Assembly (NCBI GenBank): GCA_964374105.1
Contig: CAYJXI010000001.1
Location: 135,743 to 199,742 of the forward strand
Origin: an uncultured Planctomycetales bacterium
GTDB lineage: Bacteria > Omnitrophota > Gorgyraeia > Zapsychrales > JANLHA01
Length of the DNA stretch: 64,000 bases
Reading direction: 5' to 3'
The notes under the pieces are model-generated. The model worked only from the letters and a program-made list of their open reading frames with translations. It did not search any database and was not told the origin of the DNA. Of the stretch, positions 27,001 through 51,000 are shown piece after piece. Numbering within the stretch: the first letter of the stretch is position 1; every line of letters begins with the position of its first letter. A program made the translations under genes and the position numbers.

Positions 27001-30000
27001 GGAAGGGGGCAAGGGGGGCAAGGGGGGCAAGGGGGGACAGTTCCCAAATGGGGACTGTCCCCAATGACAATGAACCCAATGAAGGGGGCGGCCATGACCC
27101 CACCCGCTCCAGCCGGCCGCTCCAGGATAGAGAAATTGAAAAAATTGAGGAAATCTTGGCTAAATATCAGGCCTTGATTAAGGGTGCTTCGTCTCTCTAC
27201 GAAAGGTTCAAACAAGCTGTCATTGACGTGTTAAGCAATAATCCTGGATACCGACAAGAAGTGGATATCCTTAAAGGCGCTAAGCTAATTAACGCCCCAC
27301 CTCAGATGTTGCCCGAAATTTATGCTCTTCAAGCAGAAAGCCAAGACCTGACCATTTATGCGTTGAATACAACTGTTGATGGTAAAAATGCTATTCTCCT
27401 TCTGCCTGCCACCCGCACAGATGAAACCCAGATCTTCCGTTCAATCCTCCACGAAATCAAGGCTATTCAATTATGGGGAACCGCAACCCTAGAACTCATC
27501 CACTCTCAGGCGCAAGCATTTGAAGAATTAGTAGAAAGAATTCCATGGCCATCCGTTCAGACTGTTATCCACGAATTCAACGGCGGTACCCACGAAGAAA
27601 ACGAAACAGTCAAAGCGGAATCTAAAGATTATCGACAGGCGGAAGCAGAAAGTTCGATCCCAGAGCCATCGGCTGCTCCTCACGGACAAACGAAGGGATC
27701 TAAGAAGAATAGGCAGCACGCCAGCATTCCCGAATTATTATCTGACTTATCGGATCCGGATGAATTTATACGTTCTGAGGCCGAGATTGAACTCAGCCTC
27801 AAGGATAGACTGCCATGGGATATGCTTTTGGGATATATCAAGAATCCTCCCATTCCTGTCAGGGATGATGAACGCTATTCAGCCGGCCAAGAATATAATC
27901 CGGAAGCCATTCGCAGAGATATTCGGATTTCAATCCTGAAAGTCCTGGGGGATAGCTTGAGCGATGAGGAAATAAGCGGCCTTAAGGGGAAAGCATCAAA
28001 ACGGGACAAGGTCAATAAAATCCTTCAGGGCATGGCTCAACAATGGAAACAACAGGACGACCTTTTACTCACCCAGTTGATCACGAAGAATCCTAATAAT
28101 CCTCTTGGCACAGAAGAATCGCTGAATTTATTGCAGGTGATGGCGCTTTTGATTCATTGGTATATCAAGTTAATGAATAAAGACAAAATTAGGTGGCATT
28201 ATGATTCCCCAGAGGAGATTCTCGATTATACCTTAGTTATTTACAGCAGAAATAATTGGTTTAGCCTGTACTATTTAGGTTATGTTTATGAATCTATCCG
28301 CAAGATTTATCCGGAAATTCAAGATGCCGTTGGTGAGATCCTATATGGTCTTGTCTTCAAGCAAATCAAAGGTTCACGGAAGGCCAAAGAGAAAGAAGAT
28401 CAGACTATTCAATTGAAGAGAAAATCTCCGAGACCTTCCGCAAAGGGCCGCAGAGGATCTAAGAAGGCTGACGAAGAGAATCTTCCGCCAGCCATGCAGC
28501 CAAAGTTCAAGGAGCAATTTGCGGAGGCGTTCGAGCACTCAGAAGAGAGGTTATTGGTTGAAGCGATTGTTCCGCGATTAGAAGAGCAAAAACGCGGTTT
28601 CTGGTGGCGGACTCCTCCCGAAAAATTCGTTGAGGATCACGAAGAGGTTTTTAATACCAAATTAGGAAAATGGCAACCACCTACTAAAAAGGAAAGAGAA
28701 ATCCTCCTTGAGCTTGCTAAAAAAACTGATCGCGCTTTCCACCGTGCCCGGCGGTTTGCGGTTTATCGAATAAAGAAAGAGATCGCCCAAAATGGAAGTT
28801 TATCGTTAATTATGCGATTGATTAATTCTATAAGATTGACTGTTTTATTGAGAATGGCCATTGCCTCTCGTGAATTTGGTCTTAAGGCCGCCATCCGCGT
28901 GCATCAAAGATTTAACCGCAAGCCCAAGTTTGGTTTCTATGCCATGGCTTCTGTTCCCAGTGATCAGAAAGATCATTCCTCCTTAACCTTTGAGGACATT
29001 TTAAGTGGCGAAAGGTTGCTGGACCATCCGGTGGTTCGGGAGCAATGGGAAAGGATTCTCCTTGATCAAAAGATCATTCATCATGTGACCAGTCGTTTAG
29101 CCAAGCTGTTGAAGAGATATAAGAGTTATTTTCGAATTCCGTTGTCTGAACGAACGGAGATTGAATCGCTGATCCCATTTGAGCAAAATCAAGAATATCT
29201 CCGGTATTTCTTAAGTTGGGCCTTTTTAAGATTCGAGGCAAAAGGCTTGGTGAGACTCCTGTCGGCTGGTTTTGATGATGCAGTCGACAAACAAGCCCGA
29301 CGTTTTGCCGCCACTCTTATCCTCGTCTTGGCAATCAAGAAGGCCGAACTTAGTGCACAACTTTTGGCAAGGAACAAAGCGACCCTTAAGATCATTGAAC
29401 AAACCCTCTCTTCGCCAGAGGTGTCTCTCCTTGTGATGCAGGAAGAAAAATCCCTCACAGCATTTAAGGAATATATCTCAGCCCAATGGGCCAAGATCCC
29501 TCATCTATCAGCCTCCTTGAAAGAACGACTGCTGAAACACGTGTTTGAGCTTTGGGAAGAAATTATTTTGAAACCGGCAAGGTTTACACCCTTAGCAGAA
29601 GAATATCAAAATAAGTTCTTTATCCGTAAGGATATTCAAGCTGCCTTACCAAAAGAATTTAAACAGAATCCTTTGGAATTCTTAACAAAGATTCAAAGAG
29701 TCACCCGGGATTCCCGATCTCCGGGGTTGGGGGATATTTCGATCTATAAATTCCCTCATGTTTACAGCCTGTTGTCGATTAAAAAGGATGTCTTGGAATA
29801 TCCTGATTATCGTTCAGACAAGGTTATGCGTTTTGAATTAAAGGATGATCGTACGCTCTTTTTGAAGCGGGTTGATTTTTTAAGAGTACTCCAACCGGAT
29901 GAGGAGATTCATGAGGCTCGTCGGTTCAATCTGGTTTTACGCGCCGCGGGTAATGAACGCTTTGCGGTCGAGGAATTTGTTGGGATTGTCATGATCGGCG

Positions 30001-33000
30001 GCTTGTTCTACACCCTGGCGGTTGGCGAGCTTAAGGGTTCCAATATGGAAGATTTTGATAAGAAGATCCTGCGCCGGATGGTTAATAAGGCCACCTGGGA
30101 TGAGGACGAAAACATGTACGACGCCTCAGTTTTAGGTAAGATCATTGAGGTGAATATTCCCGACTACAGTGATCGCTTCCGTATGATGAGGCGGAAATTC
30201 AATTCAGAAAATCAACTCTTTGATCCGAATACCTTTGCCATGCTGGCTGAGCCCTTCTTGACGGCCCTTTACGTCGCGGTCAAACGCGGCTATCGTGAAT
30301 TGCTTTCTATCGTGAATCCTCACGGCATTGAATTCGCACCTAGAGACATTATCTGGACCTTAGGTCCGCGTTATGAATTCCGGTTTATCCTCCTGGATTT
30401 CGAGACGTACTATAAACCGGATTTGACTTTAGAGACAGAGGATATTGAGAAATATCATTACTGGAGGCAGCGGTTGTCTTTATCTAAGGGAGAGGAGGGA
30501 CATCATCCTCAAGACCGCCACCCACCTGCCATGCAGCCGAAGTGGGAAGAGCGTTTTGAACGTGTGCAGACCGATAAACAAGGGGTGTACGATTATAAAA
30601 AACATAGGACGATGAGCCAAGAAGAGTGGTTCGTCACGGAGGTTGTCTCTCAACACGAAGAACGCGCCCGCGGATTCTGGTGGCGCGCCTCACCGGAAAA
30701 ATTCGTTCAAGATCACCCAAAAGTATTTTATCGCGCCCGCAACCGATGGGATACACCTACCCAAAAAGAACGTGCCATTCTTTTAGCCCTAGCTCAGAAA
30801 TCTGATCGTTTCTTCCATCGCGCCCGTAAGTTCGCGGTTTATAAAATGAAGCAAAATTTCTTCCATAAGCCGTTGATGCGAAGGTTGGTGCCGTTATTTT
30901 TGATCGGTCGAATGATTGATTTTGTGGTCAGTTTTGGAATTGCGTTTGATTCCCGCCAGTTCGCTTTAAGGGCGGCCGTTAATGTCCATAAGCGTTTTAA
31001 CCACCGGGTTTTCCAAAAGGGTGGTTTCTACGCAATGGCAGCCAAAAATGTGAAATATTCAATCTGGTCTAAACCCGTTAAAGAATTGTTCAATACCCAA
31101 TCTGGTATCGGTGACTCAGAAGCAAAAGGTAACAGTCACATTTTAGGAAGACAGACACTTGCCATGCAGCCGAAGTGGCGAGAGGCTTTTAAACAAATCA
31201 AGACGAAGGACCAAGCGGAAGAATTCTTATGGCAAACTGCTATTCAGGAAGAGACTGAACGTACTTTGGGTTTGAAACGTCTAGCATGGCAAGAATTTGT
31301 AGACAAACACACAGAGGTCTATGACGTGAAAACGGGTCACTGGCGTGAACCAACAAAACATGATCTCAGGGCGCTAGGCCGCCTAGCCCGTAAGATCAAT
31401 AAGATTTTTTATGAAGTCTTAAGCGATGCTCTTGTTTCCTTGTACGAAAATGTCCGAATAGATTATGAGGTCAACTATCCGCATATTGACAACGAAGAGC
31501 GTAAACGGCTTGTTGAGACTGAAGTCAAAGAAAAAGCACTCAAGGCTGCCCTGTATACCGCCATTGAGGAACATTACTTCTATAATCTCAATGTAATGCA
31601 AGCCGGCCAAGGCATCCTGGCGATGGTCAGTAGAGAAGGAGATAAGAATCGGAAAGATAAGAAAAAGATTCATAAAAAGGAAAAGAAAACTGAAAAGTTA
31701 ACGGCCAAAAAGGTACATGATCGCGCTTATGAAGCATTCGCTCAGTCTTTAGGCGAAGAAAGGTTTACTGAGCATAGCACGATCAGTGTTTTTAGTGAAA
31801 AAGGATGGATGGCAATATCCTTGAGCCTGGATGAATTAATTGATTGGTCCATCGCGACAACAGACGTTTTTTCCTCTGCCTTGGAAATCCTTGAGCCAAT
31901 CCTCGCTGAGGTTGGGAGCAAAAAGTCAGCCGAGGAGATTGTGGATTATTTTGTCGGATATTATGGAGAATATATAGCGAAGAAGGATGAACTCGATACG
32001 AAGGACGATTCCGCCTTGGAGCACGGGTTTAAAGATACCCTCCAGAAGAGACTTGGGCAGCCAGAAGAAGAAACTACGGAAGAAGTTGATGAATTAGATG
32101 ACATTGAAGACGATGATGATACTTATCCTTTCGCCATGCAGCCAAAGTGGCAACAAGCATTGAGCGAGGCCTTAAAAGCCGGGGATACCGAGCTGCTGGA
32201 ATTTCTAAGAGTGACCGCCCACCAAGAAGAAACATCCAGACACCGCGATACCCAGCCGGTCTCTGCCGAAGAATTTGCTAGATGGCATACCGAAGTCTTT
32301 GATGCTAATCTCATGGACTGGCGGCCGGCTCAGGAGGCGGATTACACGATCCTACTTGAACTCGGGTGGCAGACCGATACTATCTATTATCACACCTTCC
32401 AAGTAATTTATCGTTTCACCAGCGACATTGAGCGGGCGCATCATGTGGCCCTTAAGGTGGCCGCGGAAATTCATCTTCAACATAACCTGCATCAGTTTGA
32501 GGCAAGAGTTAACCCGAAAGAGCGGCCGCGCATTCTAGCTATTTCCGCAAGGGGTGTTGCCCATCAGTTTGTGGAGATTCCTCATCAGGTTTATGTGATT
32601 TCGGGTAACGCCTTGGTCGAGCAGAAAGGCCTTATCGATTTTGGAGTTGCCGAGGTTAGCCGTTATCCGAATGCGGTCGTAAAGAATGTTGCTGTTGAAA
32701 CAACCGGCGCTTTAATTCATGGCGGTACGATTTGGTGGGGTGTGAGGCCAGAGTTGAAAGATCGCCGCGATATCACCCTCGAATACCGCAAAGGCCAACC
32801 TTACCACGCTTGGGCCGGGGATCGGTATCCCACCAACTTCTTGCATCAGCCGGATAAGAATGTTCAAGAAATCACCGTTGAACCGGAACTGAGCAAGAAA
32901 GAAATTCTTTTGTGGGATAAAGGTGAATTGGTCTTGGCCTCCGGCCGCATGCGGCAGCAGCTTATATATTTCTCTATTTCTTATGGCGAAGAGCGGGCCT

Positions 33001-36000
33001 CCTTAGTTATTAGGCTTAAAGAGGAAGGTAGGGAATCTTTTAAGGTCAAGGCCTTTGTCATTCCCCAGGAATCTATCCCAGTTATCCGCCAGAAAGGGAT
33101 TCAGAGTTTAATCATGGCGACGTTTGCGGATGTCAATCACGGCCTGCTTTTAGGTTTATTTATTCCTGAGGAATACGTTAAATGGCTTCGTGGTGAAACG
33201 CCAGCTGTTCCGTTAGTCGTTTATGCCTATTCCAAGAAGCATAACTCCTCGCGGATCGCTGAACCGTTTATCTTGGATCTGCAGAAGATGATAAAGGGAG
33301 AGACGATTGAGCTAAGGCCTCAGGGAAGTCCTTGGTGGTACGGAAAGACAATTATGAATGTCTATCCTGATTCCCATAATCAGGCCATATTGCGCGGTCA
33401 TTTGAAATTTAGACTAGACGCCTTTGATCTTTTAGTCAATATGTCTGTCAAATTAGACCAGGAGTTTATTAAGAAATACGGCAGGGCCGACAAGTTTGAG
33501 GTCTACGCCGTTATCCAAAGGGATCCCAATCATGGTTTTGTGGTTACGGTTTATCACAAAGATGATTTTAATCCTGACAATCTTGAAAGTTCAAGGGATC
33601 CGTTGATGACCTATGCTTTGTTGGGAAGCAAATGGCGGCCGGTGGATTTGGCGGTGTTGGATATTATTGCCTTTAGTGAGGGGAGAAAAGACCTGGCGGC
33701 GACCGGCCGGAAAGTAAGGAGGAAAGCCTTTATCCTGAAAAATACTAAGTCAAGATTTTTAGGGAAAGGGATCGTGACGGTCAAGGCCGTTACGGATCAA
33801 AGATCCTTGGCCAAGACGGTGACCTTTGGTTTTACACCTGAGGAAGTCAGGCGCCATGATCTTGAGAATAATCCATTGATCTTTGAGTTAAAGGTTGATT
33901 CCGACTTTGGTTCCTACCTGAATATTTCTGTTGAAAGAAACGGTCAAGAAGAGTGGATGGCGACTTATTACTGGATCGCTGAGGCTAAACAGCAGCACCG
34001 GATGCGTGTTGATTTTAACCGGCTGGCCTTGATTGACCATGTTTCGGGGAAGCCCAATATTCACGGGCAGCCGGTTAAGCCGAGAGTCTACAGCCATGAC
34101 CTGCCTGTTCCTAACGGCGGATGGATTGTGCTGGGCGTCGGCCCCGAACGGCGGCTGAACGTTTATGGATTAGAACTGCTTAAAGGCAAGGTTCCGATAT
34201 TTATTCCTGAACCTCATGCGGAATACGGCTGGGTGTTCAACGTGCATGATGTTGAGGCCTACCTTAAGGATCGAAATCGCAAACCTGATGTTGTCTTGAT
34301 TAAGGACCGTAAGCGCCGGGACCCGAATGGATATGCCTTGGTTTTGAGGGAAGGATCCGGTATTGACTTGATTGACCCTCAGCGGGAGATTCCGATTACC
34401 AAGCGGGGATTAATAAAGCATTTTCATGATAAAGATGTTCGTGATCATTTCTTTGCCTTTAAAGAAATGATTGAGCAAAAGGCCGAGGGCAAAGATCTGG
34501 TTGTGATTGAAGGGATTCAGTTCTTGCAAAAACAGTATGTGGCAAGGGGGGCAAGGTATACGCAGTGGGTCTTTGCCCGAGGGGATATTGAGGCGGTGGC
34601 GCGGTTGACGGGCTGGCGGCTGAAGAGACAATCCGGCGGCAAAATCAAGGAGGACGAACAGGCGGAAGGCATGGCAAAAACTATCGGGCAGGCGAGTGTT
34701 GTGTACCAGATTTCCGGCAACCAACTCATCAAGGTGGGGGAGATGAACGCAGGGTTTGGGCCGGAAGAGGCAGCGAGTTATTCCGATGTTATTGTGAAGA
34801 ATGTCCGAACGGAGGTAACCGGTGCTCTTATCCACGGCGGCGTGATTTGGTGGGGGGCGATTGCAGATTTAAAAGACCGGCGTGATTTAACGGTTGAGTA
34901 CCGTGGCGGTCAACCCTTTCGCGCTTGGGCTGGCGATCGCTATCCCACCAACCGCCTGGATCAGCCGGATGAGGACATTGCCGCCATCATCATCCTTCCC
35001 GAATTGACACAGAGAGAGGTCATTTTATGGGATAGAAATCAATTACCCTTGGGATCCGGGCGCATGACGGAACGCGTGATTAAGTTTGAAGAAAGCCGCG
35101 GGGTCGAGCAGATCAATGTCAGATTCCACGATCGCGAAGTAGGGGTTAAGGTTCTGGTGATCCCTTATGAGTATGCGGTAAGAATTCGTGCACAGCGTAT
35201 CGAAAAGGCCGTTGTGGCTACCTTTGTTGATGAGTATTTAGGATTCTTTGTAGGAGTTTTTGTCCCCAATGATTATGAGAAATGGCTGAAAGGGGACGGC
35301 ACAGCCGCGCCTTTAAGTGTCTATGCGGTTGCGGGAAGACATCAGAGAGCAAGGATAGCTGATCCTTTTGTCATGGATATCCATAGACTGAGTACCGGTC
35401 GAGTGATTAAGGTGAGGCCTTCCGGCAGTCCTTGGCGGTACGGAAGATTTGCCTTGCGGCTGCAAAAAGATCATTCCGGAAAGAGCCAGTTATTTCTAGG
35501 ATCTATAAGACTTAGGTCATTGGCCTTTGATATTAATGTACGGATGTCATTTTCCATTAGCCCCGAAGAGGCCAAGAGACTTGGCATCAAAAATAAGGAT
35601 CAACTGTATGCGGTTATACAGGAGGACCCGAATCATGGTCCTATCGCCCAGATATATCGTTTAGAAGATTTTAATCCGAGCCAGCCGGAGAGTTCCCAAA
35701 ATCCGTTAAAAACGTATACCTTCTTTGGGGACAAGTGGATGGCCGTGGATTTAGCTGTGCTTGATATCCTGGCTTACGGCGAGGGAAGAAAGGACCTGAA
35801 AGCTTTAGGCCGGCAGGCCAGAAGAAATGTTGTCATCAAAAAGTCCGGGGATGAACGGACCGGTAGAGGGATAACGACCGTAGGGTTCTTCTTTTCAAAG
35901 CGAAAAGGTCAGAATGATGTTTTAGGTAATCGTGTGACCTTCGTATTCTCTCCGGCGGAGGTGAAACGGTTTAATTTAGAGAATAACCCGGTGATTTTAG

Positions 36001-39000
36001 AAGTGAAGGTCGATGATGATTTTGGCCCCTTTGTCGAGATCTCTGTGGAGAAGGATGGCAAGAGAAAAGTCATAGGAACGAATTATTGGATTGCCGAGGC
36101 CGTCAGGCAGCATAACATGCGTGTAAACTTAAACCGTTTGGCTTTAATTGATTTTGTTTTAGGCCGGACCAATATTCAGGGGTTGCCTATTAAACCTAGG
36201 CCGTATAGGCATTTTCGGCCTGTCATAGATGTTGGCCAGATTCAATTAAGGGCAGGGCCGAATCGTGCCATTTATATTTATGGGTTAAGAACATTACGCG
36301 GAAAGAAGCTGATATTTATTCCGAAGACAAGCCAGAAAATTCCCGGAAGGTTTTTTGCGGTCCATGATATCGAAGAATATAAAAAGAACAGGAAGCGTGA
36401 CCCTGACGTGATTCTGGTGAGGGATGCCTTGGCCAAGGCCCTGGTTCTGTTAGAGAGAAGAGAGGTGCAGTTTATTGATCCGCGCGAAGAGGTCATTGTG
36501 TCGAAACGGGGATTGGAGCCTTATTTTAATGCGAAGGCCGTCAAGGAAAGCGAGGTCTTATTAAGAAAGATTATTGCACAGGCGAAGGGAGAGGGTGAGG
36601 TTGTTATCGAAGGCATTCATTTTTATCAGAAAAGGAGACAACACCGCAGCAAGAAGGCGGTTATGGTCAAGTGGGTGTTCAAAAGGGCTGATATTCTCCG
36701 GGTGGCGGACATGATGGGCTGGGAGGTTAAGGGCAAGGTTATCGGCGCCTTCACACAGGAATTGAATGTTGATCGAAATATCGTGTATATCATTTTTGAA
36801 AATCAATTAATCAAACAAGAAGGTTCGTTTGCAGAGTTTGGTGCCCAGGAACTCCAAGGATATCCGAATGCGGTGGTGAAGAGCGTCTATACCGACACCC
36901 GCGGTGTGCTCATCCATGGGGGTGTTGTCTGGTGGGGCGCGAGACCAGATTTAAAGAACCGCCGCCATATTACCCTAGAATACCGGGAAGGGAAGCCGTA
37001 TCGGGCGTGGAACGGCGACCGTTATCCTACGGACCGGCTGGATCAGCCGGATGATCGTATTAAGTCGATTATCATCGAGCCCGAATTGACACCCCAGGAA
37101 ATTATCCTGTGGGATCAGGGGAAGATTGATTTGACGCCGGGCCGGATGATGGAGAAGGAGATTTCCTGGGTCAAATTTAAAGGAGAGGAAAAGGTCCAGC
37201 TGAGACTCCATGGCGGCAGCCTCGGAGAAAGGAATTTGATTGTTCCCGATGAACATCTGGCGAGGATGAGGCACGAGAAGATTGAGAGGATAGTTATCGC
37301 CACTTTTGCCGATGAGAATCTGGGATTGCTTTTAGGTCTTTTTGCTCCGGAAGATTATCGTCAATGGCTTAAAGGGGATCTGACGGTTGTGCCGCTCAGT
37401 GTCTATGCGTATTCTCAAAAGCGCAAATCTGCCCGGCTGGCTGAACCGTTTATTATGGATCTTTATCAGTTAAGTCAAGGGAAGCCCATTAAGGTTCGGC
37501 CGGACGGTAGTCCTTGGAAATATCGGAAGACCAAGGTCCATATTGTTATAAGCGATAGCCCCAAGAATCCCATGACTGTTTACTTAGATATGACGTTACG
37601 GAATTTTGATATCAAATCCATACGTTTGAGTATACCTCCCGAGAATATAAAGAAATTGAATGTTCATCGGGGAGACGAACTTATCGTGGCCATCATTGAG
37701 GACTTAAACCACGGTCCAGTGGCTTTAATTTACCGCGGCCAGGATTTTGATCCCGAGCATCCCGCATCATCAGCCAATCTGCTGTCGACTTATACCTTTG
37801 TTTATGGTAAATGGCGGACGGTTGATTTAGCGGTTCTGGATATTGTCGCCTTTACCGAAGGTCGGAAGGATCTTGTGGCTGCCGACCGACGGTTAATCAA
37901 AAAGGTTTTTATTTTTAAGGAAGGCAAAGGGGCTGTCCAGATCTATCTTTATGACAATAACAAGCGGATAAAAGATATCGTCTTTTCGTTTACGGCAGAA
38001 GATGTAAATCAATTTAATTTGAGGAACCAACCGGGTATTACTGAATTAAAGATAGATACGGATTACGGGCCTTACATTGAATTTTCTGTTGAGGAGGATG
38101 GGAAAACCATTGTGATTGGCACCAACATCTTCTTTGAAGAAGGCGAGAGGAGAATCGTCCGCATGGATTTAGACAAGCTGCGATTCATTGATTATATTTT
38201 AGGAAAAACAAATATTCATGGGCTTCCCATAAATCCGACGCTTTATCGTCATCCTTATGTTGTGCCTAAGGCAGGCGCAGTGAGTTTGCGCGAACGGGAG
38301 CAGACGGTCGTCATCCGCGACTTAAATTCGCTTATCGGCCGTCAAGTTATCTTTATCCCCGAGGTCCATCCTAAATACGGCTGGGTATTTAAGGTTCATG
38401 ACAGCCAGCAATACATCAAGAACCGTCTGCGTCACCCAGAGGCCATTTTAGTAAAAGCCCTTGAAGGAAATGCCTTGATCTCTCTTCAGAAACTGGAGGC
38501 TGATATCATCCATCCGGAAAGGGATGTGATAATCTCGCAGAAAGGATTGTCGGCTTATTACAGTAAAGCCGATACAGAAAATTTTGCAGCTCTCATCAAG
38601 AAGATCGAAGAAGCGGCGCAAGGAAAGACAGAAGTCACCCTAGAGGGTATCCCCTTTGTCAAGAAGCGATATGAGCATTATAAAGGACAAGGGTGGACTT
38701 TTGGCAAAGACGATATCTTCAATGTCGCTAAACTAATGGGCTGGAAGGTCAAGAAAGATATTATCCAAAAATCTTTAGAGGAAGAACTGCATAAGCTCTT
38801 TGAGGAGCAGGACCTTCTATTTTTGGCCAGTCGGTATTCCTTGGATATCAAGGACATCCTCTGGAAGCTGATCGGTTATCAGCTTAAGGGCCAATATGAT
38901 GAAAAGCAGATAGAATCTATTCTCAATCAGACGATTATTTCTATTATTAACCGTTATATCGAAACCAACGGCATTGATGAGGCCCTTAAGCACGCCCGGG

Positions 39001-42000
39001 AGCCGGAAGGAGAGATCGCCGCACCGCGGTTTTTAGAGGATGTTGATTTGTCGCAGGAAGATATTTCCAATATCGCCCGGCGCATGGATTACCGAATCAA
39101 ACGCCGGATTATTAATGAGGGTCTCAAAGGTATGGCGCGAAGCCAAGCGGTGGCGTTTATTAATAAGCTCGAGGAAAGGCATTTCTACAAGAATCATTTC
39201 AGTCCCCAGCCGGACCGCTTTACCTTGGAGAATGCCCGGCAGGCGGTTGAGGATACCCTGGCCCAAGAACAGGAGAGTATCGCCAAAGAAGCGCTGGCCC
39301 GGTTGCTGGAAGATGTCAAGGAGGCCTTGAGTCTGCAGTCCCAACTGCATGAAAAGGGCTTAAGCCGCAAAACCCATCTTAATCTTTATCAGCTGATGGC
39401 GGTCATGCGCATTGTTGAGAGAAGAAAGATTCTCTTATCCGATGAGATGGGCCTGGGCAAAACCTTGGAAACGATTGCCTCGTTTATCATATCCGATACT
39501 AAAGAGATGCTGGTTGTGGCGCCCAAGGCAGCTTTAAACCGTTGGATGGATGATCTGGCCAAACACACGGATATGGATATTGAACTGGTGAATCTGACCT
39601 ATGAACCGTTAGCGTTATCATTACAAGATAATGCCAGGATTAAAGTTGTGGAGATAGCGAAGGCTCGTAGCCGGTACAAATATCTTATGTCTCCACGTGC
39701 CCCACCCAAGAAAGGAAGAAGAGTTATCCTGATTAATTATCAAACCCTGCCGCGCCTGCAGAAGTTCAAGGAAAAAATAGGCCGCCACCAACCCATCACG
39801 ACAGAATTTGTTGCCCTGGATGAAGCCCACCTCATCAAACGCGCCAGCACCCGTACCGCCAAGGCTATTTTCGGTATCACGCAGATTCAGCAAGCCTTAC
39901 AGGCGGGCTATAAGGTCATGTTGACCGGGACTCCTCTTGAGAATGAACCTAAAGATTTATTTGTTTATTTGCGCTATCTGTCCCTCGGCGGCGATTCCCA
40001 TGCCGAGAAATTGTTCCAAAGCATATCGCAGAAGGAATTCGGCTTGATATTTAAGAAAACCGATATCGGCCGGCTGTCGATGCTTTCGGGATACTTGGCC
40101 GAGATGATGATACGACGCCTTAAAGATGATGTGGTTAAGGGCCTGCCGGAAAAACAATTCGTAAGGGTTAAGATTGAACCGTTGGCTAAGACGATGAATG
40201 TGGGGGGGCTCTTCAGCGTTGCCTTAGGCGGCGATTACCAAAAACAGATGGAACTCTATAACCTCGCCATGGACCGGCCGGATATCTTTGAGCATTATGT
40301 TGAGGAAGGGATATTCCAGAGGGAAGAGGAATTAAACGAGAATATGTTTGATGGTGATACCTCTGGTTTGTCTAAGGCCAGGACATCGCAGCTTTTGCGC
40401 CTGGAACAGACCGCGACTGATCCTTCGGTGTTTATCGAGAACGGGGTTATTGGAATCAAATTCGTTGCCGCGGCGCACCTGATTCAAGAACGGCTTAAAC
40501 AAGGAAGATTTATTCTAGTATTCACCGATTACAGAACAATTGCCGGGCATTTCCGTGACTATCTTCTTCGCCAGTTAGAGAAAGACACGAAATTCAGCCG
40601 CAATGACGTCGTTTATATCGATGGGACCATTACTGGACAGGCCCGTACACAACTCATGGCACGGTATCAGAAGGCTCAAGCCCATGTCATGATTGCCACC
40701 ACGGGCACCATGGGGGTCGCCAATGAACTGACCCAGACCGAAACAATTATCTTTTTGAACAATCCGTGGAAACCATCGAGTTTAGATCAGGCGATTGACC
40801 GGGCCCACCGTCTGGATCCCTTACGGAATTATCCTGGCAAGGTGTTAGAGATTATCCTTCTTGAATTAGATGTCGCGGTGTCGATAGATCATCTTAAAGG
40901 CATTGTCTTAAGAAGAAAGAGAATTTTATCCCGGATGATTGTTGACGGTGATCTTTCACCGGAGATCCTTAAGGCGTTTAAGGAAACAGATATCCGAAAG
41001 AGCATCATCCGCGAGATTGAAAAAGGTGACGTGGTTTCTCTCGATGAGCATGAGATGACGCTCTTACAGCAGTTCCGATTGCTTCTCTCGCAGGTTCTCC
41101 AAACCAAGGATCAGGCCGAAATGCGTGAGCTTTGGGATCAGGCCGCCCATATGTATCTTGAACTCTTGGAGCATAAAGGCTCCTTCTTTGCCAACATGGC
41201 TAACTTGGAGTATTTAAGTGATCCCAAGCACGGCGAATTAGAAAGACTCTTCCCGCAGGCCAAACAGCGGCCGCTGGTTGTGGTCGATTTAGGTTCAGGG
41301 CCTTCGACATTACAGCGGGCGTATGAACGCCTGAGCCAGCGCGAGAGCTTTAGGCAAAGAAGATTTACCCTGCGTATCAAGGATTACGATATCAGCCCCC
41401 GGATGCTGTCTTTGGGTATCCACCGTAAAGACGAGCAGATTGTCGGGACATTTGAAGATTTGGATAAGGCCTTTAAAGAGGAAAGCGTTGATATGGTCAA
41501 TATCTCTTTTGCCTATCGCTACATGTCTAATCCGGCTAAGGTCCTTAGGGCGGTACATAAGATTCTCATCGATAGTGGGATTTTAACTTTGATTTTGCCT
41601 AAGAGCAACAAGATTACAGAAGAATTTATCCAAGCCTTAGTTCAGCTTGGTTTTGTTATCAAGGTCGGCAAAGGCGCGAAACTACAGTCGCAGTTAGATC
41701 AGGAGACTTACAATAAACTCCGTCACGAGTTCGGCCAGGAATTTGCCAATGATCTGGCGGATGAGGTCAAGGGCGAGTTTACTTATCTGGTGGCCGGCAA
41801 GCAAGGGGTTCCTGCGCCAAATCTGTCCGTTGAAGAGTTGAATAAACAATTGGTATTGACCCGAAGAAAGCCGGTCGCGGTAAACAAAGAAAAGGTTAAG
41901 AAATTCATTTTTGATAAGGCCAAGACCATGATCCTGCCACCAGAAGGGGCTGTTGAAGGCAAAGTCGTTTATTACCAGGATTTGGTTAAGACAGAAATGA

Positions 42001-45000
42001 ATCAAGATATAGAGACGCAAGCAGGACAATCGGTGCCAGCCACCACCAATCATCTTTATCAAAAACTGGTTACGGCTATTAGCCGGATCTCGAAACTGGC
42101 CCATCGTTATCAGACATTAAATGCTATTGAACCGAGGTCCCTGCGAAAGAAAGAGGTTATCAATCAGAAGATTGAAAAGAAATTCGGTTTATTAAGACAG
42201 CAGATTTTAGAAGGGCTAAATATTCTGAAAGATGATGAAAGAAGGGATTTGTTAATTCGATTGGCTGCCTTAAAAGAACGCGACAGGGTTAGACAATGGT
42301 TTGAGGATTATCAGCCGCTTGTCGACTTGATGGATGTTGTTTCAGCCAGTACGACAGAGGAAAACGGTAAGGCATTGAGTGAGACAGAAGACGATAATAC
42401 CCGACCGGACGCTGATCCCAGCCCCTTCACTGGCATCCAGACACCTGGTCTTTTAGTGCGCTGGAAGGCTGAGTTTAAAGATATTCTTAAAAAGGGCGAT
42501 GAGAAGATTATCGAATATTTAAAAGAGCGCTCCTATGACGAGGAAGTCATGCGGCGTGTTTCGAGGCAGCCTGTGACACCGACCGAATTTGTGAAATGGC
42601 ACGCCCGTGTTTATGATGTCGCCAAAGGGAAATGGCGAAGACCGACTGTGGGGGATTTGTCTTATCTTTTCAGTCTGGCTAAGGAAACAGATCAGGCTTA
42701 TGAACATGGTAGGAACGAATTTTTTGAAACATATCTTTTTTCACCGATTATCGACATTGATCGAGAAAAGGTGTTGATGCAAGCCAACGAGGCCGGAATC
42801 CGGGCTGCTGCCCAAGTGCACTTTGATTACAACCAGCGTATCTTTAAATCCGGCCAAGGTATCCTGGCCATGAACCAAGATGGTTCATGGCTGGCGATGG
42901 CGGGGAAGAAAAAAGATAAAAAATATCGTAAGCAAAGACAACAAGATTTTCCTCACACATCTTCTTCAAAGGACCAATCCTTAGCTAATATTCAAAGCCA
43001 GTCACAGTCTCAACAATTTTCCACTTATCGACTGAGTGGAGGAGCAATCCTTTTAACCCGACTACTTCCAGAACAAATTCAAACTTTGGATAAGTATCCA
43101 GCCGTTGTCTATGAGGATAAGACAGGTCGTTTAAGAGTGAGACAACCCGTAAGAAGATACTTCATAGATGGAACTCCTTTAAGCAAGATTAATGAAATAC
43201 TAAGCACGCGTCTTGTAGAAACAATTACGGCCCTTGCTCAAAGATTCTCAAAACGAGTGGTTGTGGTTCTTGATTGGGGTGTGGGCAATGGAGTCGCATT
43301 ATCTCAGATAGCTGAGCAGCTTTTTCAGAATCTGACTAACGTACGATTAATAGGATATGCAAATCAGTATCTACCGGAGTGGCAATCTTATGATGAGCGA
43401 GTCACATTCGTTTTAGATGTCCTGGAAAAATTACCGATTTATTTCAATCCGGGAGAAATTGATATTATTTACAGTTCTTTTGGATTAGAGCAATTAAGAC
43501 CAAAGGCGCTTTCTGATCACCTTGTACAGTTAGCTCCACTCTTACATCCGGAAGGTGAGATTCGGATGACTAATCCTGGTCAACGTACCAGACGATATTT
43601 GGAACAACTACAAATTTACTTTACTATCGAGGGTGGTGAAAATGATTTAAAACAGCCACGCATTTCACCACTTGCACTCGTTTGGGCCCACGCGGTTCGC
43701 TTCACACTTAAGCAAAAACAACAAGAAGGTGACGGGCACTTGAAAGAGGGACAGGAAATGCAAGATAATACTCCGCCTGCCATGCAACCAAAGTGGCTCA
43801 TTAGGTTTAAATTTAACCGTGCCTTAAAACGCGCCGAGATTTCTCGGTTCCTTCAAGAAGCCGCATACAAAGAAGAAGCCAAGCGGACGGTCGGTTTTGA
43901 ACGTGCTCCACCGGAGAAATTCGTCAAAGCCCACAAACATGTCTACGATGTAAGAACAAGCAAATGGCGCAAACCCACCCAAGATGAAAAAGCACAACTT
44001 CTTGAACTGGCCCATCAAACAGACCAAACCTATCGAGAGGCCTTTGAAAAGGTTCTTCATGAAGCAAAACAAATGATCTTAACCGCGAGCACATTTAACC
44101 TTGGTTTCGAGATGTTCGCTAAGACCAGAGAAGTTGCGCGTGAAATCGGCATCGCCGCGGCGGCGAAGGTCCACTTTGACTACAACAACACTGTATTTAT
44201 GGCCCAGGAAGGCATCCTGGCCATGAACCAAGATGGTTCATGGCTGGCGATGGCGGAAGACCAACCTAAATACATAGAAGGTCAATTTTCTTTAGATCAA
44301 TGGAGTAGAGTGATGATTAACGGCAAAGAAAAAGACAGAGCGAGGGGATTGCGAAAGATGCGTTTGATTAATCTCCAAGATATAAGTCAGGAGGACTTCC
44401 TTTCCATTATCGCGGGATTAGTATCAACTATCACATCAAGGGCTGGCAAATCGAGAAACCGTATTGTTGCCGTTCGGTGGCTGAATAAGGTAATGGATAA
44501 TCTCGATTTCGCAAAATTTTCCTCTGAATTGAGAAAAAACATTGAAGGCTGGATCAATCTTTTGGGGGATGAACTGGAGCGTTATGGGCCGGTATCTTAT
44601 TATGTCCGAGGCGAGCTTGTTATTATTTTTGAGAAATACGGCACGATTTTAAGTGAAGAGTCTCAAGCGGTTTTATTCCACGTCATTTATCAGGCGATGT
44701 TAAAAGAACCACATCACCGAATACAGGAAAGAGAACTTTCAACGTTAATAACCTTGGTCCGCGGAACACCAAGGATTGGATTTCGATTTATGAACTCGGA
44801 TTTTGAGATATGGGTAGAAATGACAAGATCCGAGCTAATCGCGATATTATTCGGTCTAAATATTTTAGGCGAGGATAATCATTTCAGGCTTTTTGCGGCC
44901 TGGCTTTTGAGTTTTAGACAGGGCGATGATATTGCTCAAAAAGTAGCACTGTCAACTTTACCGTTGGCAAAAGAGGCTTTAAGTGACACAGATGAAAGAG

Positions 45001-48000
45001 GTCGATGGATAGCAAAAGAATTATTAAAAACTTATGAGGAGATGAAAGACATAGATTCGATTTCCCATATTCCACCCGCCCTGCAGCCGCACTGGCGGCA
45101 GGAATTCGATAAGCATCTAAAAATCGGGAATATTTTACAAATAATTGACTTGGCGGCTAATGTAGAAGAATGGAATCGCTCGCAGAATTTAACCCGCGGC
45201 CCGCCAAAAGAGTTTGTCCGGCCGCATGAGATGGTTTATTACGCAGACCGTGGCGTCTGGAACAAACTGACCTTCGGCGCCATCAGAGCGCTATTTAGAT
45301 TAGCCTATCAAACCGACAAAGCCTATTGGCAAGCCCGCAACGAATTCCTCAGTTACGCTAAAATTATTCTGAATCGTTCTACCGAAGATAAATTCGATCA
45401 AGAATCTGACCACCTCATTCTCGAAATCGCACATCGTCTCGGCGTTGAGGCCGCGATCGTTGTTCATCGGAATTATAATTTAGAGGTTCTGATAAAAAGT
45501 CAAGGCATCCTGGCCACCACGGCTTCGGAAGACGAAGCCAAGCGCGGTGGCTCCGGCAGCTCTGGTTCACATCGTGAACCAGCGGGAGCGATGGCGCAGA
45601 AGGATAAGAAGCGAACTCGGGATAAACGCTTTTCAGATGATACGCGAATCATCCAGTGGCGTCAGCGTCTAACTGAATCTGAAATTCTTGCTGTTAGTCA
45701 TCGATACAGTTCCTTTGAAAATAAAGGTAAAGGAGATGGACTCACGCCTGAGGGTGTTAACTATGTTAAGTTAGATCCAGAAGGAAGCTCCTTATTTCAT
45801 CTTGACTATTACTTGGAACGCATCAAAGCTAGATTTGGTGAAAAACTTGCTGCCAACAGAGAATCCTCGCTGGAAGTCTTGATGCTGGGGCCTGGGTATT
45901 TCTGGCAGGCAATTGTGGCGATGATCAAGGTGTTCCCACAAATTAGAGTTATCCATTTAGTGGAGCGTGATGCCAAAGCGCTAGAAGCTCTTGATCGCAA
46001 ATTGTCTGAGTATTCGGCTGTTGAAACCATGCCGGATCTTTTAGCTTATCAGATCAATCTGCTTGAATTGCCAGCGAAACTTACCAACCGTATCCATTTG
46101 GTGTTTGATGCAGAGCTTTTTGATCCAAATCATTTTTCACCAGGACATATCTTGCAGGCGCAAAAAGAATTAGTGAGGGTGCTAAAGCCAGGAGGGCTTC
46201 AGATCAGCTGGGACGTGCAACGCATGCCCGCTTATCATGACACGTTGCCTGTCGAATCAATGTTTGATTTGATGGCCAACCTTCATTTACGGCAACCAGA
46301 AATGGAAAAAGGTGACAGTCATCTTGGGGATGAGGATAAAAGAGACCATCCCCCCGCCATGCAGCCGCGCTGGGCGACGGAATTTGATACGACACTGAAA
46401 GAAGGCCGAGGATTAGCATTCGTTGAGGAAGTGGCTTACCGTGAAGAGATGGAAAGAACGACCCAGTGGATACGCGCCCCACCGAAAGATTTTATAAATA
46501 ACCACAAGGTCAAAGGTGTAGTGAGAGTCTACGATACCGCCCTTCACTATTGGCGAGGTGCCACCCGCTGGGACATTGGCCAGCTTCATATGTTGGCCTA
46601 TCTGACCGATGCCGAATATTATCTGGCCTTTTTGGAGGCGTTAAAGTCTAGAGAGAATGTTGAGTCCGCCCGCCGGGCCGGGATCAAGGTGGCCGCAGAA
46701 AGACATGCGCAATTCAATAGGGATGCCTTCTTAGCCAAGAAAGGCATCTTGGCGATGGCCGATTCATTTAAGCGAAGCTCGCTTAAGAGGCGCAAGGCGA
46801 TGGCCAATAACGGGCGCTTATCCAAAACTCATCAACTTCAGATTGATAGTGCAAAGTATCGAGATGATCTGGATTCCCTGCAAGCGAAGGTTGACTTATC
46901 TCTATCTCAAGGTCAAGAGGTTATGCTAAAAGTGGGCACGAAACGTTACCTTCTCCTTAAGTCTATAGGAAAGGCAATCTACACTGTGCAAAGAAGGAAT
47001 CCCAATGGGACCTTGGAGCGAAAATCGGTGCTGAGGCTTATCACTTCTTATCACGATGGCTTTGATATGGATCATCTGACTTATTATTATCAACGGATAC
47101 AGCCTAAAATCAAAAAAGATCCTCATCTTATCAATCCGTTTGTGGAAATCCTGTATCTCAATAAGAGATTGAAGATTTATGAGATGGAATGGGTGGAAGG
47201 GCAGCCGGCTTCTTTCCTTGATGACAGGATTCAACAATTGAATATTATCCTTCGATTGATGAAAACATTGGCTTACATTCATAAGCAGTATAAGGTCTTT
47301 ATGGGTGATGTGAATATGGCGGGGAATGTCTTTGTGACACCTTCAGGAACCATTAAACTGATCGATTTTGGAGAAATGCGTTTGTATCTTGGACGAAAGC
47401 AGAACATAGAAAGAATACATACCGCTAAGAAATTTTATGAGATTTTAAGCATCGCTGAAGATATTTATAAATTAATTTTTGGAAGATCTCCGAGAATTGA
47501 TCAGCATTTGATAACAGTGCTGTTTAACGAAGGCGAGATAGAGCCACGTCATTACCTATATCTTAGTTATGATGAGATCGAAAAAAAGACATTGAGCAAA
47601 GGAGAAAAACTGATCTTGAATGCTCTTCGTAAGGCGATCTTTGCCCAAGGGACATATTATAAATCCATGGAGGCATTTTATGATGATCTGGTTAATACCT
47701 TGGGTAACAGGGATCAAGAAAAATATGGGAGTCACGATCGGCAACACCCTCCTGCCATGCAATCCTTATGGCGTAAGGGATTTGAAGAGGCGGTGAAATA
47801 TCAAGAGGTGCAGGAATTCTTAGAAGAGGTGGCTTATCATGAGAAAGCCAATCGATCTGAAACCTTTGAACGGGCACCCCCCAGAGAATTTGTCGCTGGT
47901 CATCTTAAGGAAGTTTATGATGTGGCTTTACGCATTTGGCGCAAACCTACCCTTTCCGAATTGAAGACTCTTTATCGGCTGGCGAGGGAAACCGATAAAG

Positions 48001-51000
48001 CCTATGAAAGAACCTATCAAAGACATTACAATGAATTCCTTTCTTTAGTGCATTTCTTTAGGCCGTTGCTTAATGTGTTAGGGGTTGAAAAACGTACTCG
48101 TGAGCAAGCGATGAACATAGCCCGAGCCTTTGGTATCAGGGCGGCAACCAAGGTGCATGCGGCTTACAACGCCAAAGTCTTCGCAGCCAAGCAAGGCTTT
48201 TTGGCGATGGCTTACCAGAATGAAGAAGACAAAGTAATAAGGTTCACAAATATCTCAGAGGAGAATCTCACCCAAGGAAACGAAAATTCAAAAGCGACCT
48301 ACGCTGTCACCCTCAAGCAGATTGATGCTCACACCTGGATCGCCCAAAGCAGAAAAGGAATTTATCGATATCAACTAACGCCAATGTCATTGTCCGATTT
48401 AATACGATTGAAAAAACAAATCATCGAGTCTGCGAAGAATGGTGAAAGCATATCAGATCTCGCCAGCTATATCGATTCGCTCATAAACTTCAATTGGAAA
48501 AAGACCAGTGTGATTGTAGGGTTGTTCCTCAATGATCGGATCGTTGGTTTCTATGAATTTGATAAAGCCACCAATTACCTAGGCTTTATTATTGTTCATC
48601 ATCGATTTAGAGGGACAGGCGCTGTGGATATCCTTCTTGAAGACTTGGAAAGGAGAATATTTAACGGAGATAAAAAAGTAAAGTTGAATGCCTCCATTAT
48701 TCGTTTCTCTTTAAGAGCCGATGAGACCTTCGAAAGCGGCACGATCATGGAATTTAAGAAAGCGTTAGGGGTCTTGAGTGAGGTCACCCTATCCGTAAAA
48801 GATGAAAGTCAGCTTCCAGTGGGACAGCCGACAGCGATGTTACCTCGCTTCCGGAAACGATTAAAGCAAGCGATTGAAGGAGGGACACTCAAGGAATTCT
48901 TAAAAGAGGTGGCTTATTGGGAAGAGTCCAAGCGGAGAAATTATCCGGCCTCAGTGAGTCCGATTGAGTTTGTGCGCTGGCATAAACGAATTTTTGATGT
49001 TTCCACTGGCAAATGGCGAAAGCCAGATGAAAGCGACAAATTCCATCTTTTGAAATTAGCGCTTCAGGCGGATAGAGCCTATGAAAGGGCCATGATCAAG
49101 TTCTATGAAAAATACAAGGGGAATATCGACAAATCTCTTTGGGAAAGACCACTGTGGAGAATTTCTGCAGAGAAGATGAAGACCACTTTATTGATCTTGG
49201 CCGGAATGGCCCATGAGGAAGGACTTAAAGCCGCCAGTAGAGTCCATACTCAATATAATCTTCGTATTATGAAATCAAGAATAGGCATCCTGGCGATGGC
49301 GAATGGAGAGGATAAGAAGAAAAACTCTAAACCTTCGTTTGGCTTTTCTTATCCTGTGACATTGATCCAGATGGATTCTGTCACTTGGATGGTGGAAAGT
49401 AAAAAAGGTCGATATCTATTGAAGGTCTTAGGTTCAATTCATGATGGTATAGTTACCGTCCGTTTGATTTACAAAGGCGAATATGTCGGTTACTACGAAA
49501 TTAATTCTCACGATTTTTTTATAAAACATGTTCGTGTTGATGAACAATTCCAAGGGACAGGAGCATTTGATGTTCTTCTGGAGGATATGTTGATCAGAGT
49601 CTTACACGATGATCCCATAAGAGAGGTCCAAGCGATTATCATGCGGGACTCAGAAAGAACGGACCGGACCTTTAGGCGGGGAACATTGGCCGAATTTAAA
49701 CGAGCTTTAGGGGTTCTCAGTAAAGTCAAGGTTAAAAGGAAAGGTGACAACCACCTTAAAATGATGATGAAGAAATATAGGCTCAAATTGAAGACATCCG
49801 TTGCTCAAGAACATAAAGTGAATGATCCCGAACTTCCTGGCCTGCTTCCTATCTGGAAAGGGGAATTTGAACAACACAAAAAACAAGGACGAATTTTGGA
49901 ATTCTTGGCGATGGCGGTCTATTATGAAGAAAGCAAACGATCGATCAATCAAACCCGGGCGCCGTCCAAAGAGTTTGTGAAGGCGCATCGGCGTGTTTAT
50001 GATGTCACAAAAGGCAAATGGCGGAGGCCAAACTTCAGTGACAAAAAATCCCTCTTTAAACTCGCTAAATTAACCGACCAAGCTTATTGGCTAGCCTATG
50101 ATCAATTTTTAAAACGTGCTAAGACTTTTATTGATATTGCCAGTGATTTTGGAAATATTGCAGAAGTTGAAAAAGAAGCCAAAAATTTTGCCCATCGGCA
50201 AGGGGTTGAGGCGGCAACAAAGGTGCATCTTGAATACAATCTTAATATTTTAACATCGGGTGTAGGAATCTTTGCTCTGGAAGACGAACAACATTTGATT
50301 CATGGTTCCCAATGGGATGGATTCAAAGGAGTCATTTTTGATCTCGATGGTGTCATTGTTGACACAGGACATCTTCACAGACGTGCCTGGGAATTAACTT
50401 TGGATAGGCCCGTGGATGAGGTGATGGCCAAACGATATTTCCGCGGCAAGAGTGCTTTGGAGGCGGTAAGGGCCCTGATTGAGGCAGACCTGTTAACCGG
50501 GCTCGATGAATCTTCCATCCGGTATCTCAGCCATAAAAAAGTATCGATCTTTAATGATCTTTTCAGGACAGAAGGTGTTCAACCCTATGCGGGTAGCGTG
50601 AAATTCATTAATGAATTAAGACATGAGAATATTGTTCTGGGGGTTGGTTCTTCCAGTCCTATTGCCGAGGAAATCTTAAAGAGCATTGGATTAAGAGATT
50701 ATTTTAAGGCGGTTGTGGGAGGACGCGGCATCACCCAAGGCAAACCCCATCCGATGATCTTTCATCTGACAGCGGAAAAGATGGGATTGAATCCCGAAGA
50801 TATCGTGGTCGTGGGGGACTCTGTCCCGGATGTGCAGGCCGCGGTTCAAGGAGGATTTGGATTTACCATTGGGATCATTCGCGATGGGGAAGACAATAAT
50901 TATCAAGCGCTCCTTGAGGCCGGGAGTGATTTGGTTGTCAATGACTTAAAAGATATCAGTGTTGATCAAGTCAACAGACTCTTTATTGATAAGAGAAAGA

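Follow-up and report, generated by a model that had tools for sequence, protein, structure and literature searches.

Giant genes reported from the bacterial phylum Omnitrophota reach 147,155 codons. According to the literature on these genes, it is not settled if their products work as one chain or as cut pieces, and neither cleavage points nor module boundaries are known. Here we describe a 64,000-nucleotide (nt) stretch, hereafter the window (contig CAYJXI010000001.1, positions 135,743 to 199,742), that lies within a gene of this kind and in which the original prediction, made from the sequence letters, had pointed to an adaptor recurring in front of different enzyme-like domains, its payloads. 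What is this adaptor, and what does it do between the enzymes? We find that the adaptor represents a domain family, not described before, of the giant multi-enzyme proteins of Omnitrophota. We put at about even the chance that it is a non-catalytic connector, or module head, which carries a conserved His/His/Asn/Glu site and organizes cytoplasmic enzyme modules.

An adaptor array within one giant reading frame

A jackhmmer self-search started from one copy and an iterated hidden Markov model (HMM) with outside relatives revealed exactly 11 strong copies of a module of about 150 amino acids (aa) between aa 9495 and 16761 (nt 28,485-50,285). The HMM E-values of the individual domains range from 1e-35 to 1e-50, and the copies are pairwise 19-48% identical. 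The elevenfold recurrence predicted for the region between 28.5 and 50.3 kb is therefore far beyond chance: the copies align significantly in the HMM, and all motifs that had been named for the adaptor are visible in the 11-copy alignment. Outside the array just two sub-threshold partial matches were found, at aa 6292 and 21159. The adaptor has no match in Pfam, NCBIfam, PADLOC, PDB sequences, PDB folds or viral folds.

The frame that encodes the array contains no stop over 21,332 codons, versus 872-1,693 stops in each of the remaining five frames of the window. It is open at both window ends, so the true gene is longer. Just one other open reading frame (ORF) of at least 150 aa is present, with 181 aa; it runs on the opposite strand and lies within the giant frame. 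Three Pfam scans, which covered the whole window, matched Glycos_transf_1 (GT4, 2.5e-38), Bac_transf, PALP and, weakly, WD40 toward other parts of the ORF; further matches were to HEAT_2, Peptidase_M23, His_Phos_1, PEP-utilizers and PPDK_N, in addition to SNF2 with Helicase_C, several class I methyltransferases (MTases), a kinase-like region, GNAT and HAD. Since the frame is stop-free and Pfam domains occur along its whole length, the eleven-copy array lies inside one giant gene. Coordinates of the features are collected in Table 1.

Table 1. Features of the window and of related loci (coordinates are those of the window unless a related locus or protein is named)
Feature	nt	Strand	aa	Remarks
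Giant ORF	3..63998	+	at least 21,332	frame +3; aa i = nt 3i..3i+2
Adaptor copy 1	28485..28952	+	9495-9650	E 5e-41; begins PPAMQPKF
Adaptor copy 2	30522..31043	+	10174-10347	E 1e-39; begins PPAMQPKW; hydrophobic insertion in loop between two long helices
Adaptor copy 3	31158..31631	+	10386-10543	E 2e-44; 38 aa past copy 2
Adaptor copy 4	32127..32546	+	10709-10848	E 1e-35; sole adaptor before the triplication, SNF2 and MTase stretch
Adaptor copy 5	42441..42878	+	14147-14292	E 3e-45; diverged N-terminal motif TPGLLVRW
Adaptor copy 6	43773..44231	+	14591-14743	E 1.5e-50; copy used for the AlphaFold2 model
Adaptor copy 7	45072..45524	+	15024-15174	
Adaptor copy 8	46350..46763	+	15450-15587	
Adaptor copy 9	47748..48215	+	15916-16071	
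Adaptor copy 10	48828..49304	+	16276-16434	
Adaptor copy 11	49836..50285	+	16612-16761	
Triplicated unit, 3 tandem x ~700 aa	32589..38786	+	10863-11566, 11567-12260, 12261-12928	units 42-46% identical
SNF2-family ATPase core	39417..40814	+	13139-13604	SNF2-rel_dom and Helicase_C; Pfam 7e-27 and 2.5e-10
Class I S-adenosylmethionine (SAM) MTase	41262..41645	+	13754-13881	Methyltransf_11/UbiE type; Pfam
Copy 5 payload			14422-14518	Methyltransf_25, E 1.4e-4, under gathering score
Copy 7 payload				third MTase-like; weak signs: Methyltransf_25 E 0.03, VLKPGG motif
Copy 8 payload			15697-15795	kinase-like: ABC1/Pkinase 1e-4, below cut-off; DFG motif
Copy 9 payload			16163-16231	GNAT, Pfam 2e-11
Copy 10 payload				second GNAT-like; 33% identical to copy 9 payload, E 7e-25
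Copy 11 payload, HAD hydrolase	50325-50954	+	16775-16984	Pfam 4e-27; starts 13 residues past adaptor
Zincin-like module X, copy 2	27090..27539	+	9030-9179	~300 aa upstream of adaptor 1
Other X copies	23178-23624, 54843-55271, 56391-56900, 57768-58250, 61416-61850			
HExxH sites outside X	1101, 18579, 22503		367, 6193, 7501	
Peptidase_M23	17421-17729		5807-5909	
Repeat Y	27723-28493, 56991-57752			257 aa, 39% identity
Repeat Z	11700-12110, 17823-18197			~135 aa, 34% identity
Second A-M-A sites, copies 5-8	42879-42905, 44232-44250, ~45585, ~46795			SWLAMAGKKK, SWLAMAEDQ, GAMAQKDKK, RRKAMANNG
Loop insertion sites	28800-28900, 30880-30940			also relative P0016, residues 700-790
Cysteine codons	52407-52409, 57549-57551		17469, 19183	
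mutL-mutS neighbourhoods	L011 16309-20827; L013 17297-21525			
Frameshift sites	L011 9880-10120; L012 820-1060			

The composition of the giant protein is unusual in one respect. It contains two cysteines in 21,332 aa, neither of them within or beside an adaptor; there is one in-frame TGT and one in-frame TGC, versus 621 and 642 when counted over any frame. In most related Omnitrophota fragments the Cys share is 0.3-1.9%, and one relative, P0016 (1,872 aa), has none.

Conserved core and border motifs

AlphaFold2 modelling predicts with confidence that the adaptor folds into five helices and a small beta-hairpin. Columns F55, H59, W70, L81, L84, A135, H139, N143 and A155 are invariant in the alignment of the 11 copies. 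Conservation was also tabulated for 45 copies (given below as window / outside copies), using a position numbering of its own (H52, H126, N130, E33) that differs from that of the 11-copy alignment. The highest values belong to H52 (1.00 / 1.00), H126 (1.00 / 0.93), N130 (1.00 / 0.81), A142 (0.96-1.00) and A122 (0.93-1.00), followed by G139 (~0.91), E33 and V55 (both ~0.9). In 11-copy numbering, D89, H139 and N143 should, judged from the helix register of the model, face one another near H59 and E40. The near-invariant Glu, two His and Asn would, in the most likely case, make up a buried polar or metal/ligand site, which may stabilize the fold or give the modules a common regulatory input.

The original prediction had placed the emphasis elsewhere, on the N-terminal octapeptide PPAMQPKW, described as near-invariant and as strictly conserved against a divergent background. 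Near-invariance does not hold: the exact octapeptide is present in 2 of the 11 copies and three more have one mismatch, while the other six have 2, 2, 2, 4, 5 and 6 mismatches; it is strongly diverged in copies 5, 10 and 11, and no invariant column falls within it. The claim of strict conservation was overstated as well, as the Glu, two His and Asn of the core are more conserved across the 45 copies than the octapeptide, where values are 0.82-0.89 for P1 and A3, 0.73 for M4, 0.59-0.82 for P6 and 0.47-0.82 for W8. These per-position values define the family-wide N-terminal motif as [AG]-[ML]-x-P-x-[WF]. The C-terminal motif is G-phi-phi-A-M-A, so that A-M is present in both. Taken as an alignment feature, the octapeptide is a genuine conserved border motif, and A-M-x-P-x-W and G-phi-phi-A-M-A would be the N- and C-terminal border elements of the domain.

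Between its two long helices the adaptor has a variable loop. Hydrophobic, even transmembrane-like insertions are present in this loop in copies 1 and 2, as well as in a number of homologues, and may provide membrane contact for some copies. A HEPN-like Rx4-6H motif was considered for the adaptor and rejected, since the Arg position is not conserved in the alignment.

Are the border motifs sites of cleavage? The ORF contains six copies of a zincin-like, protease-fold module, X, and adaptors and X modules also occur together in the relatives P0003, P0001 and P0020. The original prediction had suggested looking for protease domains elsewhere in the full gene; the X modules and a Peptidase_M23 domain are present within the window. 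In a processing scheme, the borders (P-P-A-M-Q-P, G-I-L-A-M-A and a second A-M-A in copies 5-8) would be cut by the X modules in cis, or by a C39 or S8 domain outside the window, and the giant would fall into adaptor-tagged enzymes. The tripeptide [LP]AM is seen 18 times versus 3.6 expected, nearly always at adaptor borders, and the N-terminal octapeptide lies in polar linkers and is predicted to be unstructured in copy 6 (predicted local distance difference test score, pLDDT, <50). Proteolytic processing of these giants, with unknown cleavage points, was proposed by West-Roberts et al. (2023, bioRxiv 10.1101/2023.11.21.568195), and zincin-like peptidases have been proposed to process polyvalent proteins, which phages and conjugative elements encode (Iyer et al. 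2017, PMC5512222). Several observations argue against the scheme. In all six X copies the canonical HExxH is replaced by HExxA or HExxS, which makes their protease activity doubtful. The border motif occurs in a single module family: a different one (DPTRSSRPL) opens the X modules, and hence there is no universal inter-module site. The C-terminal motif lies within the predicted fold, where it makes a beta-bridge, and its ten-residue block has an average pLDDT of 87. No experimental fragments are known. We therefore consider processing at the adaptor borders quite unlikely. A more elaborate version, in which the borders are the processing points of a bacterial polyprotein, cut perhaps by the X modules, and the released adaptor-tagged enzymes dock to a common partner via the His/His/Asn domain, we regard as improbable.

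The second A-M-A sites lie 10-25 residues past the end motif G-I-L-A-M, within Lys-rich linkers. Three canonical HExxH sequences occur outside the X modules and, together with the Peptidase_M23 domain, may represent further peptidases in the same protein. Two additional repeated non-catalytic modules were noted in the window. Repeat Y immediately precedes adaptor 1 and recurs ahead of an X module; repeat Z is also present in the Omnitrophota protein P0008.

The conserved borders could in principle act at the level of nucleic acid, with the border Met residues as internal translation starts, Pro-Pro as programmed pauses, or the repeats as sites of cassette recombination. Met is conserved in both border motifs, the adaptors (7.9% of residues) hold 12 of the 33 Pro-Pro pairs, and relative P0010 is called as a separate gene beginning at an adaptor border. 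A synonymous bias was also detected in the octapeptide codons (nt 28485-28508 in copy 1 and the equivalents in copies 2-4 and 6-10): GCC for Ala in 8 of 9 cases (p 0.004), AAG for Lys in 5 of 5 (p 0.024) and CAG for Gln in 6 of 8, the p values being uncorrected and the sample small. However, the conserved ATGs are not preceded by Shine-Dalgarno-like enrichment (duplex energies from +0.6 to -4.2 kcal/mol, versus a mean of -2.5 over 402 in-frame ATGs), and internal starts were rejected for this reason. The Pro codons vary freely, and there is no depletion of Pro-Pro in the rest of the protein (33 observed, 30.7 expected), which also disposes of the notion that Pro-Pro is counter-selected except in adaptors. 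Adaptor DNA is 60-79% identical between copies, in short stretches only, with a longest exact shared run of ~17 nt. This is too little for homologous recombination, and recombination cassettes were rejected accordingly. A signal in the nucleic acid is extremely improbable. The adaptor duplications are old.

Payloads, linkers and relatives

The predicted alternation of adaptors with unrelated payloads is present in outline. Adaptors do precede variable payloads, several of distinct fold: Pfam supported the SNF2, GNAT and HAD calls and two of the MTases, while signs of the kinase-like fold and of the third MTase-like fold are weak. No family match was obtained for payload 1, for the copy 6 payload (280 aa, predicted to be ARM-like) or for the triplicated unit, which was searched against Pfam. 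The alternation is not strict, since copies 2 and 3 have just 38 aa between them and copy 4 alone heads 3,298 aa. Nor are all payloads unrelated to one another: the two GNAT-like domains form a related pair, and three payloads are MTase-like. Adaptors in tandem without a payload, seen in copies 2-3, are also found in P0003, as expected of a bead that is independent of its payload.

Two known contexts were considered for the SNF2 region, and neither was retained. A DNA adenine methylase beside SNF2 was rejected, as no [DNS]PP[YFWH] motif is present anywhere in the window, the MTase beside SNF2 included. Membership in a defence system was likewise rejected; just the generic SNF2 core resembles ZorD, DpdE and DrmD.

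Word-indexed searches, which for the adaptor alignment and the triplicated unit covered 5.8 billion proteins, returned no homologues of these two or of the X-module alignment. An exhaustive profile (HMM) search of 1.84 billion representative proteins returned 21 adaptor relatives, 7 of them below 1e-10. They are mostly long partial proteins, up to 5,747 aa, and several have 2-4 copies. Ten relatives were looked up and six of these could be named, all six from metagenome-assembled genomes (MAGs) of Candidatus Omnitrophota. The octapeptide as a DNA pattern gave 5 matches in GTDB genomes, versus ~4 expected by chance, and one of these alone is genuine (L003, a MAG labelled Planctomycetales with 4 adaptor copies in an 8-kb open frame); none of 5 matches in metagenomes is genuine. 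Neither the adaptor nor the octapeptide pattern was found in viral contigs (IMG/VR). As had been anticipated, the adaptor flanks other payloads in other genomes: it is followed in relatives by HAD, LOG/Lysine_decarbox, CheD, HTH_8 and Sigma70_r4. In L011, LMWPc begins 11 residues after an adaptor and LOG also follows one; in P0001, HAD begins 3 residues after the adaptor, compared to 13 after copy 11. Three further module families are common to the window and adaptor-bearing relatives.

With such a range of domains behind it, the adaptor could be a common sensor input that binds a small molecule or metal, in the manner of PAS, GAF or four-helix sensors, and allosterically controls the output that follows, one signal co-regulating the whole array. 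The Glu, two His and Asn are nearly invariant across 45 diverged copies, and the adaptor is always N-terminal to outputs of signalling type (kinase-like, HAD, LMWPc, MTases, GNATs, CheD, HTH and sigma region 4). Nielsen & Lui (2026, bioRxiv 10.64898/2026.06.07.730766) class MTase, GNAT, HAD and HATPase as a regulatory module of the giants. Against a sensor speak the lack of fold or sequence likeness to known sensor domains, the tandem adaptors without an output and the single adaptor that heads 3,298 aa of payload; the conserved residues are equally explicable as structural. This possibility is tentative, and we consider it unlikely.

The adaptors are set in polar sequence. The 25 residues upstream of the copies have a polar or charged fraction of 0.60-0.84, versus 0.58 for the mean of the protein and 0.68 for its 90th percentile, and the stretches downstream are often similarly polar. 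The picture is that of a folded bead in flexible linkers, usually N-terminal to an enzyme. A hydropathy scan revealed 6 strong hydrophobic segments, at aa 1467, 1935, 2576, 6720, 7680 and 20709, and weaker ones. The array lies within a 13,000-aa stretch between the hydrophobic helices at aa 7680-7698 and 20709-20727, whose array-facing flanks have net charges of +4 and +6. In P0001, P0006 and P0013, a Lys-rich stretch comes after the last adaptor, and a hydrophobic helix after that. Payload families of the SNF2, MTase, GNAT and kinase types require ATP, SAM or acetyl-CoA. Together, the positive array-facing flanks, the pattern in relatives and the cofactor requirement suggest that the array is on the cytoplasmic side.

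Two features were noted around related giant genes. In each of two different Omnitrophota MAGs, an adaptor-bearing giant gene has its 3' end a few kb upstream of a convergent mutL-mutS pair, suggesting a chromosomal setting and a conserved position. In two Omnitrophota MAGs a frameshift interrupts the final adaptor of the giant gene, and the adaptor tail with LOG is called as a separate 565-aa gene; in MAG P0022 this region is in frame. The frameshift could be an indel or an assembly error.

Our preferred interpretation, the connector or module head named at the outset, is as follows. The adaptor would be an autonomously folding domain of ~150 residues that is specific to the multi-enzyme giants of Candidatus Omnitrophota. 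A flexible polar linker would come before it, and often after it as well, and a catalytic or DNA-binding domain would be joined to it by its N-terminus, with a spacer of sometimes <15 residues. Adaptors would string unrelated enzymes along one membrane-anchored polypeptide on its cytoplasmic side. The array would have grown through old duplications of the adaptor or of adaptor-payload units, followed by payload replacement. The analysis itself shows the repeat, its restriction to Omnitrophota giants, a novel fold predicted with confidence, the pattern of conservation and the range of payloads; the cytoplasmic location, the metal or ligand site and a connector function without cleavage are the parts that we infer. 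Several points weigh against this interpretation. The connector role is proposed from sequence and a model, and the clustering of Glu, His, His and Asn from the helix register alone. Topology was assigned with the hydropathy scan and the positive-inside rule. Invariant His and Asn would not be required in a spacer that is purely structural. An octapeptide that is conserved yet falls below pLDDT 50 is what one typically sees in recognition or cleavage motifs rather than in a structural element, and six zincin-fold modules in the same protein leave room for processing.

Comparison with known systems

The original prediction had likened the array to polymorphic toxins and to multifunctional autoprocessing repeats-in-toxin (MARTX) proteins. 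MARTX toxins are defined by glycine-rich repeats of the repeats-in-toxin (RTX) type, an inositol-hexakisphosphate-activated cysteine protease domain (CPD) that cuts between effectors, and type I secretion. The likeness is that unrelated enzymatic domains share one very long polypeptide and are separated by a recurring sequence; a conserved module before variable enzymes, the part of the comparison that stands, is seen in relatives as well. Membership in either toxin class does not stand. The recurring element of MARTX proteins is a cleavage linker, whereas here it is a folded 150-residue domain. The Pfam scans detected neither RTX, RHS or filamentous-haemagglutinin repeats nor a Peptidase_C80 (CPD) match in the window, where a cysteine protease would in addition have two Cys to draw on. 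Polymorphic toxins have a variable C-terminal toxin with an immunity gene, and RHS, haemagglutinin or pre-toxin domains; here the payloads are internal, none of these domains was found, and the window contains no immunity gene (no other ORF over 181 aa). The payloads (MTase, GNAT, kinase-like, HAD and SNF2) are not toxin families; they are of housekeeping type. The array is probably cytoplasmic, and the context in relatives is chromosomal. For delivery of effectors into prey, with the adaptor as the delivery or processing unit, there is the superficial alternation of a conserved module with variable enzymes, and the cited observation that Omnitrophota such as Velamenicoccus archaeovorus are predatory and that a giant protein rises on prey contact. 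A toxin of this kind is very improbable.

Polyvalent proteins of phages and conjugative elements also combine many unrelated enzymes in one chain, with SNF2 beside an MTase (PMC5512222); to their zincin-like modules, X is a possible counterpart. They comprise 2-15 domains, compared to a chain of at least 21,332 aa here, and the adaptor is not among their described domains. They couple SWI2/SNF2 to a DNA adenine methylase, whereas the MTase of the window is of the Methyltransf_11 type, lacks a DPPY-like motif and is C-terminal to SNF2. The present gene is cellular and chromosomal, the adaptor is absent from viral contigs, and SNF2 has just distant matches in phage records.

PAS, GAF and four-helix-bundle sensors resemble the adaptor in that one small conserved domain precedes many outputs and has conserved polar residues suggestive of ligand binding; they differ in sequence and fold, and here up to 11 copies are present per polypeptide. 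In polyketide synthases and non-ribosomal peptide synthetases, with their linker and docking domains, and in cohesin-dockerin scaffolds, non-catalytic elements likewise order catalytic modules. Here, in contrast, there is no carrier-domain assembly line, and Pfam found no dockerin, cohesin, ketosynthase (KS), adenylation (A) or condensation (C) domains in the window.

The closest comparison is with the Omnitrophota giants themselves, described as 'Archaeovorins' (West-Roberts et al. 2023) and as the class 'multi-enzyme metabolic cluster' (Nielsen & Lui 2026). Shared features are the single ORF of tens of kb, here at least 21,332 codons, and a domain vocabulary of GT4, MTases, GNAT, HAD_2, HEAT_2, PPDK_N and peptidase. 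The scattered hydrophobic segments of the window may correspond to the numerous transmembrane helices of these giants. SecA (divergent DEAD-like), NUDIX, and C39 and S8 peptidase domains were not found within the window, and the gene continues beyond both of its ends. In the portions of text searched, the two papers mention no recurrent non-catalytic connector, linkers, border motifs or cysteine avoidance, nor cysteine at all. Giant multi-enzyme proteins were thus known before; the adaptor module and its border motifs are new. The adaptor adds a domain family to so far unannotated sequence and gives the first sequence-defined module borders for Omnitrophota giants, and with them an objective way to divide these proteins for structure prediction and expression. 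The border motifs are specific peptides, candidates for cleavage, to be sought in proteomics. Concrete borders and candidate cleavage peptides address a problem that the giant-gene papers state openly, which is what makes the array of interest, and the adaptor itself, a small testable domain with invariant His/His/Asn/Glu, may hold the organizing principle of the enzyme arrays.

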